From positions 8,680 through 72,679 of the forward strand of contig JAGLRN010000069.1 of NCBI GenBank assembly GCA_023136265.1: a stretch of DNA of 64,000 nucleotides, given 5' to 3'. This DNA comes from Thermoplasmata archaeon. Its GTDB lineage: Archaea > Thermoplasmatota > Thermoplasmata > RBG-16-68-12 > JAGMCJ01. Shown piece after piece: positions 14,750 to 18,409 of this stretch. The notes beneath the pieces were generated by a model, which was not told where the DNA came from, ran no database searches, and was given only the letters and a program-made list of their open reading frames with translations. Every line of letters starts with the position of its first letter. Within the stretch, counting starts at the first letter, position 1. Position numbers and translations under genes: made by a program.

Positions 14750-17700
14750 CTACTCTTCCTGGGGCTCTTCCTGAATCAAGAGCCTGGGCAGCATTCTGGC
14801 TGTCTCGATCGTCGCCTTGCCAGAGCTCAAGAGCTCCTGGACATCCTTCTTGAGGAGCTTCGCTCCCCTTGGCGGGTAGACCATCCCGATGAGCGCGTCC
14901 TCGACCACGTACTTCCTCGGGATGAGTGCCAAACCGTGCTGGACGCCTTCGACGACGATGCAGCTCGTCACCTCTCCGATGACCGCCTTCCCTCTCACAA
15001 CGAACAATCCCGGACGGACGACCCTTATGCCCTTCCTCTCCATTCTGAAGCGGACGACCTCCCGCTTCCTGTCGAACGCCTTCTCGACGGCCCTCTGCCT
15101 GCCGACGAAGAACGGCTTGTGGAGCTTGACGAACGACCCGTATCCAGCCTCAGTCGGGAAGAGGTCGTGCTTGCCCGCCAGCTCGTTGCCCCAGAGCGGG
15201 AATCCCGCCTCGGTCCTCGTCGAGTCCCTCGCCCCCAGCCCCGCCGGCTTCACGCCGAAGAGTTTGCCCGCCTCAAGGATGAGATTCCACAGCTTGGGCG
15301 CCTTCTTCGGATGAATGAATAGCTCGTAGCCGTACTCCTCTCCCGTGTATCCTGTGCGGGAGATAATCAGAGGGGTGGCGGCTATCCTCGCTCTCATCAG
15401 TTCAAACCTACCGAGCGACCAGAGCTTCCTCCTGTCCTTCTCCCCTTGGACGAGTTCCATGAGGACCTCGCGGGACTTGGGTCCCTGCAGCGCGATGTCC
15501 ACCCGCTGGTCCCTCCCGCTCGATAGGTCCTTCAGGTCCCTCACGGAGACATCCCTGGTCGCCTCGACCGTTGGGTGCTCGCGGCTCAGGAGATATTCCC
15601 CGGTGCTCGCAGCCTGAAGCCAGGCGAACACCTTCTCCGCGTTCACGGCGTTCGCGACGACCATGTAATCGTCCTCGCCGATCTTGTAGATGAAGATGTC
15701 ATCGATGACGCGCCCCTCGATGTCCAGCACGTAGGAGTACTGCGACTCGCCGGGTCTGAGCCATCGTACGTAGTTCGTCGTCACGGCATCCAGGAACTCC
15801 GTCGCATCCCTGCCCTGAACGCTCAGGACGCCCATGTGGCTCACGTCGAAGAGCCCGGCCGTCTCGCGGACCGCCCTGTGCTCCTCCGCGATGCTCGTGT
15901 AGAGTATGGGCATCTCCCAGCCTGCGAAGGGCTTCATCGAGGTCTCCTTGGTCAGCTTCAGGTGCTCCTCGTACAGGCAGCTCCTCCGCAGCGGGATGTC
16001 CTCCGGCTCGTACCTGTATATCCTCTTCCGCGACCTCTGGCGAAGGAAGTCCCGCTGACCGATAAAGTAGGGTTTCGTCATGTCCATGAACTCCTTGCGC
16101 CTCAGGACGATCTCGCTCGCGTGGGCCTTCCTCCTGCCGTAGATGGGGAGGTAGCGCCTCTTCCGCATCTCCAGCTCGGCGTCCATCCCCGCCGGGCCCA
16201 CGCCCATCCTCTTTCCGGCGTCCAGTAGAGCGTTCCAGAGGTCCACGCACTTGCGCCTGCTGACGATCAGATGATATCTCTCGCACTTGAGGTGCATCCC
16301 GGACCATCCGATCGTGACTCTGATGCCATCCAGGGAGGCCTTCACCGCACCTCTGCCGTCCCATTTCTTCAGCTCTGGTGAGAGCTTGTTCAGCATCCTT
16401 AGGCTCTTATGCCCATGCAGGATTATGCTCGTCTTCCCATCACGCTTCAGGTCCCTCACTATGACGGGACCTTGGACCTTTCTGAAGATGTCGTCATCGA
16501 ATATGACGTAGGAATCGGAAAGCGCGCGGAACCACAGCTTGACCGTGTCCGCGTTCTGAGGGTTTGCAACAACGATGAACCTGTCCCTTCCCGTCTTGTC
16601 GGGGGTTTCCCTCATCACGACGACATCGTCGATTATCCTCCCCTCCTTGTCCAGAACCAGGGTCCTCAGGCTGTCACCGAATTCCATCCCACGAATCGGC
16701 CCCGTGCAGACCTCATCGAGGAAGGGTCTTGCCCGCCACCCGACGACCTCAAGCAGCCCGTGCGTCCAGCCGTCCAGGACGCCCGCCGTTTTCGAGATCT
16801 TCTCGAGGTCCTTCTTCGGCGTGTGATAGACCGCAGGAATCCTCCACCCGCCGACCCTCCTCATTTTGGCGCGGGACATCCTGTGAATCCCCTCAAGAGG
16901 ATTCTCGACTTCCTCACCTTCGCCGGTGCCATAGTGCGGATAGCCGTGTCTCGGTGCGGGCACCTCGCTCCTTGCCTCCTTGACAAGCTCGTCGACGTCT
17001 CGCTTGACCTCCTCGAGTATCCTGAGCTCGATCTTCCCCCTGCCCACGTCCTTCTCCCGACCGACGTAGTGGAAGGGCTGGATGTTCGTCAGGACCCTGT
17101 GGGCCAAGGCGGCGATCTTCTCCATCTGGCTCTTCCCGAACCCTCGCTGCGTCACCCACGTCGTGCCGAAGCGTACCGCGCTCGGGTGTATGGCATTCTC
17201 ATCGTACGGGATCGTGTTCTTGTTGATGACGATACCGCAGAGCTCCATGATGCGGGAGGCTATCTCGCCCGTGAGCGGGTAGCCGGTCTTCGTCTTGATG
17301 TCCCTGAGGTCAATGAGCAACAGGTGGCTGTCAGTCCCGCCGTAGGCCACCGTGAGCCCGAGCTTCTTGAACGAGCTCACCAGATGCTTCGCGTTCTCCA
17401 CGATCCTCCTCGTCAGCTCCCTGAACTCGGGCGTCTTGGCTATCTCGAAGCACACGGCCTTCGCGATGACGTTGTTCAGGTGCGGCCCGCTCTGCTCTCC
17501 CGGGAAGACCGCCCGGTCCAGCGCCTTCGCCTTCTCCTTGTCCGTGGTCAGGAGGACGGCCCCGCGAGGACCGCAGATCGACTTCTGGGTCGTGAACATG
17601 ACCACGTCCGCGTATCCTATCGGGTTGTTGAACTGCCCGCCGACGATGAGACCTGCGACGTGAGCCATGTCCGCGAGGAGAATGGCCCCGCCAGCCGCGT

Positions 17701-18409
17701 CGGCGACCTCCCTGAACTTCTTCCAATTGATGTTCCACGGGTAGGCGCTGTACCCCGCGATGACAAGCTTCGGTCTGTGCTCCTTGGCGAGCCTCTTCAG
17801 CTCTTTGAAGTTGAACTTGCCGGTCCTGTCGTCCGGGTAGTAGGGGATCACGTTGTAGTACCGTCCGGAGCGGTTCACCTCGCTCCCGTGGGTGAGATGT
17901 CCGCCCGCGTTCAGCGCCATCCCCATGACCGTGTCGCCGGGCTCAAGGAAGGCGTTGTAGACGGCGTTGTTGGCGATAGCGCCCGAGAGCGGCTGGACGT
18001 TCGTGTGAATCTCGTCCGCGGATATCTCGTCCGTCGCGAAGATCTCCGCCAGTCTCTTCTCCGCCAGGTTCTCCATGACGTTGACGTACTCACAGCCCTT
18101 GTAGTACCTCCTGTCCGCGTATCTGCGCTGATGCGTCATCTGGTGCTCGTAGTCCGTTGCCAGCCCCCTGTCCTCCTTGTCCATCCTGACCGATGGATGC
18201 CCCTCGGCGTAGAGGTTCGCGAAGGCGGACGCGACCGCCTCCCTCACCGGGCTGGGACAATAGCTCTCGGATGCGATCATTATGAGCTTCCTATCCTGCC
18301 TCTCCTCCTCGAAGCCTATGAGGTCAGCGACCTCCTTGTCGATATCCTCGAGGCGAGCGTTGAAGACCAAATCCGCGTAAGTTCTCTTGGCCATGCGACC
18401 ACTCCTCAT
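14750..18409 (-). CDS. glyA: Tri-domain fusion: serine hydroxymethyltransferase (GlyA/SHMT, about aa 1-480) fused to two tandem aminomethyltransferase (glycine-cleavage T protein, GcvT)-like units (about aa 500-790 and 800-1219)
   Basis: SHMT motifs: IASESYCPSPVREA, TNVQPLSGAIANNAVY, FTTQKSICGPRGAVLL (PLP-Lys region). Canonical GcvT unit: PFAGWEMPILYTSIAEEHRAVRETAGLFDVSHMGVLSVQGRDATEFLD...YMVVANAVNAEKVFAWL...GEVTSCIVVEGVQHGLALIPRKY. A degenerate paralogous GcvT unit lies upstream of it (GVLDGWTHGLLEVVG...DDVVVMR...FIVVANPQNADTVKLWF). It is one continuous 1219-aa ORF. Confidence 0.8.
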   Translation of the reverse strand: MRSGRMAKRTYADLVFNARLEDIDKEVADLIGFEEERQDRKLIMIASESYCPSPVREAVASAFANLYAEGHPSVRMDKEDRGLATDYEHQMTHQRRYADRRYYKGCEYVNVMENLAEKRLAEIFATDEISADEIHTNVQPLSGAIANNAVYNAFLEPGDTVMGMALNAGGHLTHGSEVNRSGRYYNVIPYYPDDRTGKFNFKELKRLAKEHRPKLVIAGYSAYPWNINWKKFREVADAAGGAILLADMAHVAGLIVGGQFNNPIGYADVVMFTTQKSICGPRGAVLLTTDKEKAKALDRAVFPGEQSGPHLNNVIAKAVCFEIAKTPEFRELTRRIVENAKHLVSSFKKLGLTVAYGGTDSHLLLIDLRDIKTKTGYPLTGEIASRIMELCGIVINKNTIPYDENAIHPSAVRFGTTWVTQRGFGKSQMEKIAALAHRVLTNIQPFHYVGREKDVGRGKIELRILEEVKRDVDELVKEARSEVPAPRHGYPHYGTGEGEEVENPLEGIHRMSRAKMRRVGGWRIPAVYHTPKKDLEKISKTAGVLDGWTHGLLEVVGWRARPFLDEVCTGPIRGMEFGDSLRTLVLDKEGRIIDDVVVMRETPDKTGRDRFIVVANPQNADTVKLWFRALSDSYVIFDDDIFRKVQGPVIVRDLKRDGKTSIILHGHKSLRMLNKLSPELKKWDGRGAVKASLDGIRVTIGWSGMHLKCERYHLIVSRRKCVDLWNALLDAGKRMGVGPAGMDAELEMRKRRYLPIYGRRKAHASEIVLRRKEFMDMTKPYFIGQRDFLRQRSRKRIYRYEPEDIPLRRSCLYEEHLKLTKETSMKPFAGWEMPILYTSIAEEHRAVRETAGLFDVSHMGVLSVQGRDATEFLDAVTTNYVRWLRPGESQYSYVLDIEGRVIDDIFIYKIGEDDYMVVANAVNAEKVFAWLQAASTGEYLLSREHPTVEATRDVSVRDLKDLSSGRDQRVDIALQGPKSREVLMELVQGEKDRRKLWSLGRFELMRARIAATPLIISRTGYTGEEYGYELFIHPKKAPKLWNLILEAGKLFGVKPAGLGARDSTRTEAGFPLWGNELAGKHDLFPTEAGYGSFVKLHKPFFVGRQRAVEKAFDRKREVVRFRMERKGIRVVRPGLFVVRGKAVIGEVTSCIVVEGVQHGLALIPRKYVVEDALIGMVYPPRGAKLLKKDVQELLSSGKATIETARMLPRLLIQEEPQEE

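Follow-up and report, generated by a model that had tools for sequence, protein, structure and literature searches.

A serine hydroxymethyltransferase fused to a complete and a degenerate glycine cleavage T-protein unit in archaea and bacteria

A 64,000-nucleotide stretch of a Thermoplasmata archaeon genome (GenBank assembly GCA_023136265.1, contig JAGLRN010000069.1, positions 8,680 to 72,679; the whole stretch is referred to as the window) contains one long open reading frame (ORF) in which a serine hydroxymethyltransferase (SHMT) is followed by two units related to GcvT, the aminomethyltransferase or T-protein of the glycine cleavage system (GCS). Judging from the sequences of this protein and its relatives, the product is probably a GCS T-protein covalently joined to a tetrahydrofolate (THF)-dependent SHMT, with a degenerate duplicate of the T-protein lying between them as a non-catalytic adaptor. 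The two enzymes would share methylene-THF. In relatives the genes gcvH, gcvPA and gcvPB are located directly downstream of the fusion, usually without a separate gcvT, which favours this reading. The architecture is not rare, being present in at least 225 species-level genomes. It is apparently uncharacterised yet widespread and includes a domesticated pseudo-enzyme module, and its chemistry is familiar rather than of a new kind.

The ORF and its parts are listed below in window coordinates, with residues counted from the first codon of the ORF.

14750..18409, minus strand: whole fusion ORF, 1219 codons plus a stop codon at 14750-14752, from the ORF listing and its translation
16970..18352, minus strand: SHMT module, residues ~20-480, a predicted bacterial THF-type, fold-type I pyridoxal phosphate (PLP) enzyme with a C-terminal extension of ~40 amino acids
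18119..18193, minus strand: family-specific SHMT insertion of ~24 amino acids, residues 73-97, between the active-site segments YAEG(H/Y)P and RRYYKGCEY
17582..17584, minus strand: codon of the PLP Schiff-base lysine K276, aligned to K226 of Bacillus stearothermophilus SHMT
16895..16969, minus strand: linker that joins SHMT to the middle unit, residues 481-505, with the conserved GYPHY motif
16010..16894, minus strand: middle unit, residues 506-800, comprising GcvT domains 1 and 2, without a C-terminal barrel and with the folate and catalytic residues mostly replaced
16451..16534, minus strand: best-conserved motif of the middle unit, W-R-LSD-Y--FD--D-F-K--GP----D, residues 626-653, including an insertion relative to canonical T-proteins
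14753..16009, minus strand: complete T-protein unit (C unit), residues 801-1219 (~415 amino acids), with GCV_T at ~815-1091 and the barrel at ~1101-1200

A sequence-only reading of this DNA had described an uninterrupted SHMT with two GcvT-like units, and the ORF call, Pfam and NCBIfam bear this out. The reading frame is single and has no interruption, with SHMT at ~20-480, the degenerate unit at ~506-800 and the complete T-protein at ~801-1219; the junctions lie at ~16970, as proposed earlier, and at ~16010, close to the earlier 16050. The Pfam SHMT model matched with an E-value of 9e-114 (380.6 bits against a cut-off of 27), its best stretch covering residues 97-434 and a second one lying at the N-terminus. 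GCV_T matched with an E-value of 1e-100 in two stretches, the better of which was 815-1091 and the other supplied by the middle unit, and GCV_T_C gave a weak match (E 0.16, residues 1116-1162). No NCBIfam model spans the whole protein. The length of 1219 amino acids given before applies to the ORF; the protein itself is probably 1214 residues long and starts at the ATG at 18394 (Met6), since AGGAGTGG is located just 5' of this second ATG and the nearest homologues, P0001 and P0002, are both 1214 amino acids long and begin with MAKRTY. A relative's assembly, GCA_030615325.1, encodes a protein with 93% identity.

Comparison of the middle segment (~496-800) with the C-terminal segment (801-1219) confirmed that they are paralogous (32% identity, E 6e-38). 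The middle unit is far more distant from the solved T-proteins, its best match being the Bacillus subtilis T-protein 1YX2 at an E-value of 2.4e-13, which marks it as a copy of the C unit duplicated within the gene. The earlier estimate of ~370 amino acids for each unit was not upheld, as the middle unit has ~300 and the C unit ~415. An AlphaFold2 model of a single chain (residues 6-1205), built from an alignment of 121 family sequences, had a mean predicted local distance difference test score (pLDDT) of 87.8 and a predicted TM-score of 0.85. Values of pLDDT below 50 were confined to model residues 298-300, inside SHMT, and to the linker between SHMT and the middle unit (model residues 489-493), which is the sole inter-domain stretch of this kind. 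The confident, compact model indicates that the predicted inter-domain arrangement is defined rather than resembling beads on a string.

The SHMT module is, by sequence, a bacterial, THF-type enzyme. It scored 422.8 bits with the NCBIfam SHMT subfamily model NF000586 (cut-off 335), its best sequence match in the PDB was B. stearothermophilus SHMT 1KKJ (E 7e-99), and in a Foldseek search against the PDB the fusion model superimposed on SHMT structures with target TM-scores of 0.91-0.95. Residue conservation was counted over the 121 family sequences. E48, H171, D247, K276 and R413 are present in all 121, and the last four align to 1KKJ; we take H171 to be the PLP-stacking histidine, D247 the aspartate facing the pyridine N1, and R413 the arginine that holds the substrate carboxylate. 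K276 lies in the motif TTQKS, which reads TTHK in most members (the preceding residue is H in 105/121 and Q in 16/121). For the folate site of B. stearothermophilus SHMT we assume, following the established SHMT literature, the residues E53, Y60/Y61 and the Asn of VNKNTIP. In the fusion family the folate-site residues E69, Y103, N396 and N398 (the latter two in the NKNTIP motif) are invariant, as is Y67, and Y102 is Y or F. Use of tetrahydromethanopterin, considered in the sequence-only reading, is not indicated: the fused SHMT is of the bacterial THF type, and one archaeal locus with the fusion (L076, described below) encodes a separate archaeal-type SHMT. The ~24-residue insertion, which interrupts both the Pfam and the PDB alignment and leaves two stretches in each, is conserved throughout the family (R96, D99 and Y103 are invariant) and has reduced model confidence (pLDDT 59-71). 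In the following linker, the Y, P and H of the GYPHY motif are nearly invariant.

The C unit has the features of a complete T-protein. The gcvT equivalog model TIGR00528 matched residues 808-1157 with 282 bits (cut-off 235.85), and the unit aligned to residues 2-346 of the 364 residues of the Thermotoga maritima T-protein 1WOO (E 3e-60). By this alignment D904, Y908, N920, Y1021, E1029 and R1061 correspond to T. maritima D96, Y100, N112, Y188, E195 and R227. D855, H858, M859, D904, N920, Y1021, E1029 and R1061 were found in 121/121 sequences and Y908 in 120/121, with one Tyr-to-Phe replacement; the DVSHMG motif (D855/H858/M859/G860) is thus invariant or nearly so. The motifs GLFDVSHMG, in this unit, and GVLDGWTHG, in the middle one, had both been singled out before and are both present in the translation. 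As for the C-terminal barrel, its presence was borne out by the 1WOO alignment, which extends to residue 346, and by predicted beta-strands at model residues 1111-1199 (pLDDT 75-91), the Pfam GCV_T_C match being the part that stayed insignificant; the same model was significant in the family members P0136, P0145 and P0155. The pLDDT of the C unit was mostly above 85.

The middle unit, in contrast to the C unit, has lost most of what a T-protein needs. It stops ~20 residues past the KPYFIGQ motif, at the point where the barrel would start, and the next T-protein unit begins at ~801. In T. maritima numbering, the SHMG histidine is replaced by T549, Y100 by M599, Y188 by W702, E195 by H713 and R227 by E745, and of the folate-site positions only D595 (D96) and N616 (N112) are kept in the window protein; the motif Asp also persists. 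Across the family the SHMG histidine is Asp in 110/121 sequences and Y188 is Arg in 78/121, and the equivalents of D96 (96/121), N112 (95/121), E195 (as E or D, 82/121) and R227 (104/121) are largely kept. Since the E195 and R227 equivalents are still present in most bacterial members, the window's Thermoplasmata clade has the most degenerate middle unit; within that clade P0001 carries Asp at the E195 position and the rest carry His.

The best-conserved part of the middle unit is the motif at residues 626-653. Its invariant columns in alignment A1 are W, R, L, S, D, F, D, D, K, G, P and D, and W626, D632, F637, D638, G647 and P648 are found in every one of the 121 sequences. The insertion within it is shared with the C unit and with stand-alone 'long' GcvTs of 404-429 amino acids. 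In many shorter orthologues (~1030-1125 amino acids) the middle unit is cut down to ~130 residues, a domain-2-like piece with W-R-LSDGY--FD--D-F-K--GP and KPYF(I/V)G, and the motif is present in all of these short variants. They lack the half that bears the Y188, E195 and R227 equivalents, yet are located in intact gcvH-gcvP operons. Taken with the lost residues and the missing barrel, these ~130-residue versions indicate that aminomethyl transfer cannot be the conserved role of the unit. The unit is nevertheless under purifying selection, with a ratio of non-synonymous to synonymous substitutions (dN/dS) of 0.13-0.17, similar to the catalytic parts. We infer that it is a maintained non-catalytic module acting as a structural element or adaptor. 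The sequence-only reading had suggested a regulatory or pterin-binding pseudo-enzyme; its degenerate, pseudo-enzyme-like nature stands, and pterin binding as a role of the whole family is contradicted by the short variants. An altered domain order, considered for representatives that matched the middle-unit profile at ~650-1100, was rejected, as these proteins have the same architecture with a shorter middle unit.

The fusion was recovered from many independent sources. A search of a collection of 5.8 billion proteins gave, among its best 120 clusters, only proteins of 1172-1282 amino acids with SHMT and GCV_T and 46-97% identity, from independent assemblies (NCBI, JGI, ENA, Logan). A fusion-specific probe, a six-sequence alignment of the middle unit, found relatives in at least 225 species-representative genomes, from which 80 loci were fetched. 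These comprised Chloroflexota (58 loci), Thermoplasmat(ot)a (8), Aerophobetes (7), unclassified bacteria (4), and one locus each from an unclassified archaeon, Spirochaetota and Planctomycetota. The presence of the same fusion in related archaea, which had been put forward as a check, was thereby confirmed. Every one of the 80 loci came from a metagenome-assembled genome (MAG), and 75 complete, uninterrupted fusion genes were recovered from them. The label '[Eubacterium] cellulosolvens' of P0051, from an 8-kb contig (GCA_975970955.1), was not accepted as proof of a cultured host. In a profile search of 1.84 billion representatives, 742 clusters scored at E <= 1e-30; the top ~130 of these were mostly fusion-sized proteins or fragments, and canonical GcvTs of ~360 amino acids appeared from about E 1e-45.

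Selection was estimated per segment within the window's clade, and all segments proved to be under purifying selection. The dN/dS ranges were 0.08-0.13 for SHMT, 0.09-0.26 for the linker, 0.08-0.14 for the C unit and 0.11-0.36 for the barrel, in addition to the range for the middle unit given above. In the comparison of window positions 14753-18394 with L060 (1848-5492) dS was mosaic, at 0.21 in the SHMT part and ~0.9 in the middle and C parts, a sequence pattern that suggests intragenic recombination between related lineages. One Thermoflexales MAG (L085) carries two paralogous short-variant fusions less than 10 kb apart (1649-4918, 1089 amino acids, and 11015-14290, 1091 amino acids).

The gene neighbourhood points to the GCS as the conserved partner of the fusion. 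Downstream synteny was counted in the 74 loci whose sequence extends for 1.5 kb or more beyond the fusion on that side. In 21 of them gcvH, followed by gcvPA and gcvPB where the contig extends, is located directly downstream on the same strand, and two further loci have gcvH/gcvP genes convergent with lplA. This arrangement was found in Chloroflexota, Aerophobetes, Spirochaetota (L067) and the archaeal loci L056 (unclassified) and L076 (a Thermoplasmatota MAG). ORF clustering of all neighbours, made without prior bias, also ranked two genes above all other true neighbours, gcvH in 23 non-redundant loci and gcvP in 18; clusters 1-4 were mostly antisense shadows of the fusion itself, and the others reflected lineage-specific synteny, namely fatty-acid synthesis genes, LarA and a 385-amino-acid protein without a Pfam match. 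A separate gcvT was absent from the flanks in 23 of the 24 gcvH-bearing loci, so the fusion fills the gcvT slot. The exception is L079, where a separate gcvT-like gene lies at 12950-13966 between the fusion and gcvH.

In L076 a Pfam-confirmed GCV_H gene begins 17 nt after the fusion, and a separate archaeal-type SHMT of 397 amino acids with a weak Pfam score is encoded at 4000-5193 (minus strand), 2.4 kb from it. The presence of this second enzyme at the same locus argues that the fused SHMT is, in this MAG, a dedicated GCS partner rather than the housekeeping enzyme. At the same locus a TPD-motif protein is encoded directly after gcvH (11688-12467, plus strand).

According to the proposed scheme, the C-terminal unit would take the aminomethyl group from lipoyl-H-protein, loaded by P-protein, and with THF release NH3 and 5,10-methylene-THF, or run in reverse. 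The N-terminal SHMT would interconvert glycine plus methylene-THF and serine plus THF. A single chain would hold the two sites in a 1:1 stoichiometry and allow the labile methylene-THF/THF pair to be cycled locally, the net reaction being 2 glycine <-> serine + CO2 + NH3 + 2[H]; alternatively, both sites might supply, or draw from, a common one-carbon (C1)-THF pool. Substrate channelling between the putative SHMT and T-protein sites is plausible, and the pseudo-T module together with the SHMT insertion would be the candidate interface. SHMTs are obligate dimers, and the assembly is therefore presumably a dimer. In the archaeon of the window the direction is likely to be glycine and serine catabolism, a setting suggested by a papain-like protease and by giant surface proteins with SBP_bac_5 domains encoded in the window (described below). 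The resulting C1-THF could enter a THF-type Wood-Ljungdahl pathway, which would amount to sharing of a pool and not to dedicated coupling.

The same elements would also fit a bolder scheme, which we regard as unlikely. In it the fusion would be the central element of a self-sufficient 'glycine-to-serine synthase' metabolon. The pseudo-T module and the SHMT insertion might enclose a path between the sites, or offer H-protein or the folate polyglutamate tail a place to dock, so that one captive folate shuttles C1 units from site to site as a quasi-prosthetic group and never passes into the bulk solvent. If this were true, the natural design would be directly transferable to engineered reductive-glycine pathways.

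Several observations weigh against a GCS-coupled T-protein and SHMT. About 70% of the loci have no GCS neighbours. A tblastn search with GcvH, GcvPA, GcvPB and LplA gave no match in the 64-kb window, the Pfam annotation of its other main ORFs contained no GCS gene, and no gcvH, gcvP, lpd or lplA was found in the window or within less than 10 kb of the fusion in the closest relatives; for this clade, H-protein dependence is thus putative. Moreover, if, as regards methylene-THF, both sites run the same way, either with serine and glycine both oxidised or in a reductive glycine route, channelling would be unneeded and the benefit of fusion less obvious.

Among the alternatives, the coupling to carbon monoxide dehydrogenase/acetyl-CoA synthase (CODH/ACS) raised as a possibility in the sequence-only reading is unlikely. 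The fusion would there be a dedicated C1 feeder that channels serine- or glycine-derived methylene-pterin into the methyl branch of the adjacent pathway. Genes for bacterial-type acsA/B/D/C, cooC and RACo indeed lie at 23856-35184, separated from the fusion by ~5.4 kb, L005/L006, L057 and L077 (whose AcsA proteins are 77-88% identical) share the arrangement, fdhD and mobA, which we take to act in formate dehydrogenase maturation, flank the fusion on its other side, and methylene-THF is a true intermediate of the THF-type Wood-Ljungdahl pathway. However, the fusion gene is monocistronic, with mobA (14188-14748) and fdhD in convergent and the gene of an fn3 protein in divergent orientation, and at least five unrelated genes (encoding the fn3 protein, an FMN reductase, a UbiE methyltransferase, PEBP and a 313-amino-acid ORF without a Pfam match) separate it from acsA on the opposite strand. 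Proximity to CODH/ACS (within 10 kb) is confined to the window's Thermoplasmata clade: of 90 loci, not counting the window, 5 show it, and two of these five represent one gene assembled twice. The remaining loci, more than 70 in number and drawn from four bacterial phyla and from other archaea, lack CODH/ACS within 10 kb, and gcvH and gcvP are found instead in the 23 and 18 non-redundant loci mentioned above. The link to the adjacent genes is therefore circumstantial: a shared metabolite pool is compatible with it, yet falls short of dedicated coupling. We consider it more improbable that the fusion is an H-protein-independent formaldehyde trap, in which an SHMT-like retro-aldol cleavage of serine or another beta-hydroxy amino acid would release formaldehyde, captured on THF by the GcvT-fold units via an internal tunnel. 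GcvT-fold domains fused to another catalytic domain often work in this way (dimethylglycine oxidase, sarcosine oxidase, trimethylamine N-oxide (TMAO) demethylase), and the C unit gave partial matches to the models of TMAO demethylase (Tdm), SoxA, DmdA and LigM and to the structures 9Q59, 1PJ5 and 2GAG. These scores are far below the family cut-offs (180 against 1100 for Tdm, 169 against 1164 for SoxA, 86 against 410 for DmdA and 61 against 580 for LigM), whereas the gcvT equivalog exceeded its own. In addition, the SHMT module retains every folate-site residue and would need no external trap, and the gcvH-gcvP synteny indicates classical T-protein chemistry.

Two further possibilities concern the middle unit and the ORF itself. 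Rather than an inert spacer, the unit could be a second ligand or catalytic site (a third folate or folyl-polyglutamate site, or a dock for H-protein) that passes on cofactor or regulates; we find this doubtful. The D96, N112, E195 and R227 equivalents retained in most of the 121 members, the motif maintained in every variant and the purifying selection all favour it, and the replacements of E195 (His, or Asp in P0001), R227 (Glu) and the SHMG histidine in the window's clade, together with the missing barrel that would close a folate cavity, oppose it. As the short variants dispense with the Y188/E195/R227 half and still occur in intact gcvH-gcvP operons, folate binding cannot be the family-wide role of the unit. 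An artificial origin of the ORF from distinct glyA and gcvT genes, through a lost stop codon, a frameshift or a chimeric assembly, has a negligible probability. It has only the unusual length in its favour, and is opposed by the same continuous architecture in more than 120 clusters of independent origin, 75 complete genes and at least 225 species genomes, by the conserved linker motifs GYPHY and KPYFIGQ, and by the low dN/dS; comparison with relatives thus removed the concern over lost stops or frameshifts that had been raised for the junctions.

The fusion resembles several known systems in part. Like the GCS T-proteins of T. maritima (1WOO), B. subtilis (1YX2) and Escherichia coli (1VLO/3A8I), the C unit aligns end to end, scores above the TIGR00528 cut-off and keeps the catalytic Asp and the folate site, and in relatives the fusion holds the gcvT position ahead of gcvH-gcvPA-gcvPB. 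Unlike them, it has ~50 additional amino acids, owing to an insertion that follows the helix at T. maritima ~113-128 and is shared by the stand-alone 'long' GcvTs, and it forms the C-terminal third of a 1214-residue chain instead of a free monomer of 360 residues. The SHMT module resembles bacterial GlyA (1KKJ; E. coli 1DFO) in identity (38-42%), in target TM-score and in its conserved PLP, substrate and folate residues, and differs in the ~24-residue insertion near the active-site loop, two smaller insertions, the ~40-residue C-terminal extension and the ~740 residues fused downstream.

In plant mitochondria the glycine decarboxylase complex and SHMT are coupled non-covalently in the photorespiratory conversion of 2 glycine to serine, probably with THF and methylene-THF recycled locally. 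The same two activities would be linked here via methylene-THF, with the same net reaction; there they are separate proteins, whereas here they form one polypeptide with a pseudo-T module, in anaerobic prokaryotes. Protozoan dihydrofolate reductase-thymidylate synthase and formiminotransferase-cyclodeaminase are bifunctional folate enzymes with demonstrated or proposed channelling. They likewise carry two consecutive folate-dependent sites on one chain and serve as a precedent for passing a folate intermediate on locally, but their folds and reactions are unrelated. Dimethylglycine oxidase (1PJ5), the alpha subunit of heterotetrameric sarcosine oxidase (2GAG) and TMAO demethylase (9Q59) similarly have a GcvT-fold, THF-binding module attached to a catalytic partner. 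Their partners are flavoenzymes or Tdm domains that make formaldehyde or an iminium, with no H-protein involved, whereas the partner here is a folate enzyme.

The earlier remark that this architecture is not known as a characterised enzyme was supported by all searches made. Full-text literature searches found no description of an SHMT-GcvT'-GcvT fusion. Sequence searches of the PDB returned only ordinary SHMTs, T-proteins and other GcvT-domain fusions (dimethylglycine oxidase, SoxA, dimethylglycine dehydrogenase and TMAO demethylase), and Foldseek gave only SHMT-sized PDB matches (best query TM-score 0.34), with no chain covering more than one third of the model. In databases the fusion is annotated as 'GcvT' or as 'serine hydroxymethyltransferase'/'SHMT', and because annotation pipelines give it just one of these labels it has apparently gone unnoticed. 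The lack of study is probably also explained by the fact that there are no isolates among the listed genomes. A single KEGG Orthology call on the fusion misses either glyA or gcvT, which affects metabolic reconstructions of abundant uncultured sediment lineages (Anaerolineae, Aerophobetes, Thermoplasmatota). SHMT and the GCS form the central serine/glycine/C1 node and are also at the heart of the reductive glycine pathway, which is being engineered so that formate and CO2 can be assimilated. The fusion could serve to test channelling of a folate intermediate and as a ready-made component in pathway engineering, and it is, if the adaptor role holds, a clean example of a duplicated enzyme domain that became a maintained non-catalytic adaptor.

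Some lineage-specific neighbours of the fusion were also recorded. In Aerophobetes (L008 5217-15455; L009; L027-L029, L031, L083) the operon has the order class I/II aminotransferase, fusion, transketolase-like gene (677 amino acids), gcvH, gcvPA and gcvPB, with lplA nearby; the pairing of aminotransferase and transketolase hints at a route from serine via hydroxypyruvate to a ketol donor. In two Thermoplasmata/Methanomassiliicoccales loci (L001 13703-16066 and L042) a 787-amino-acid HdrA-like FAD/Fe-S protein with an MvhD (FlpD) domain is encoded directly downstream on the same strand, and one might speculate that it is a disulfide-reductase-type partner of dihydrolipoyl-H-protein replacing Lpd. 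In 16 Chloroflexota loci (L048 7143-8468, L010 7359-8504, L061 4914-6068 and 13 more) the ~385-amino-acid protein without a Pfam match is encoded upstream of the fusion on the same strand; by eye its N-terminus is nucleotidyltransferase-like. A protein from the representative library, P0258 (1318 amino acids), combines Lpd-like (Pyr_redox_2/dim), GcvT (GCV_T and GCV_T_C) and GcvP domains and represents a further GCS fusion or else genes merged during gene calling.

In the window itself, the bacterial-type CODH/ACS cluster (23856-36059) has surroundings that are otherwise archaeal (Thermoplasmatota-like) and include AsnC/TRASH regulators. Encoded in it are AcsA (Prismane), AcsB (carrying a CODH_A_N domain), AcsD, AcsC, a DUF166 protein, a CooC-like ATPase and RACo, and a formyltransferase-like gene belongs to it as well. 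The AcsD and AcsC ORFs as listed overlap at 28789-28999, so AcsC probably starts later than listed. The regions 7759-12564 and 43731-57449 encode a secreted papain-family (Peptidase_C1) protein of 1601 amino acids and giant surface proteins of 1611, 1396 and 1557 amino acids, the latter with FG-GAP, Big_13, PKD, fn3 and peptide-binding SBP_bac_5 domains, and these predicted products suggest an extracellular peptide-scavenging lifestyle. A class-V aminotransferase of 386 amino acids is encoded at 2693-3853 (minus strand), ~11 kb from the fusion, and could be of the serine-pyruvate or phosphoserine type or a cysteine desulfurase.

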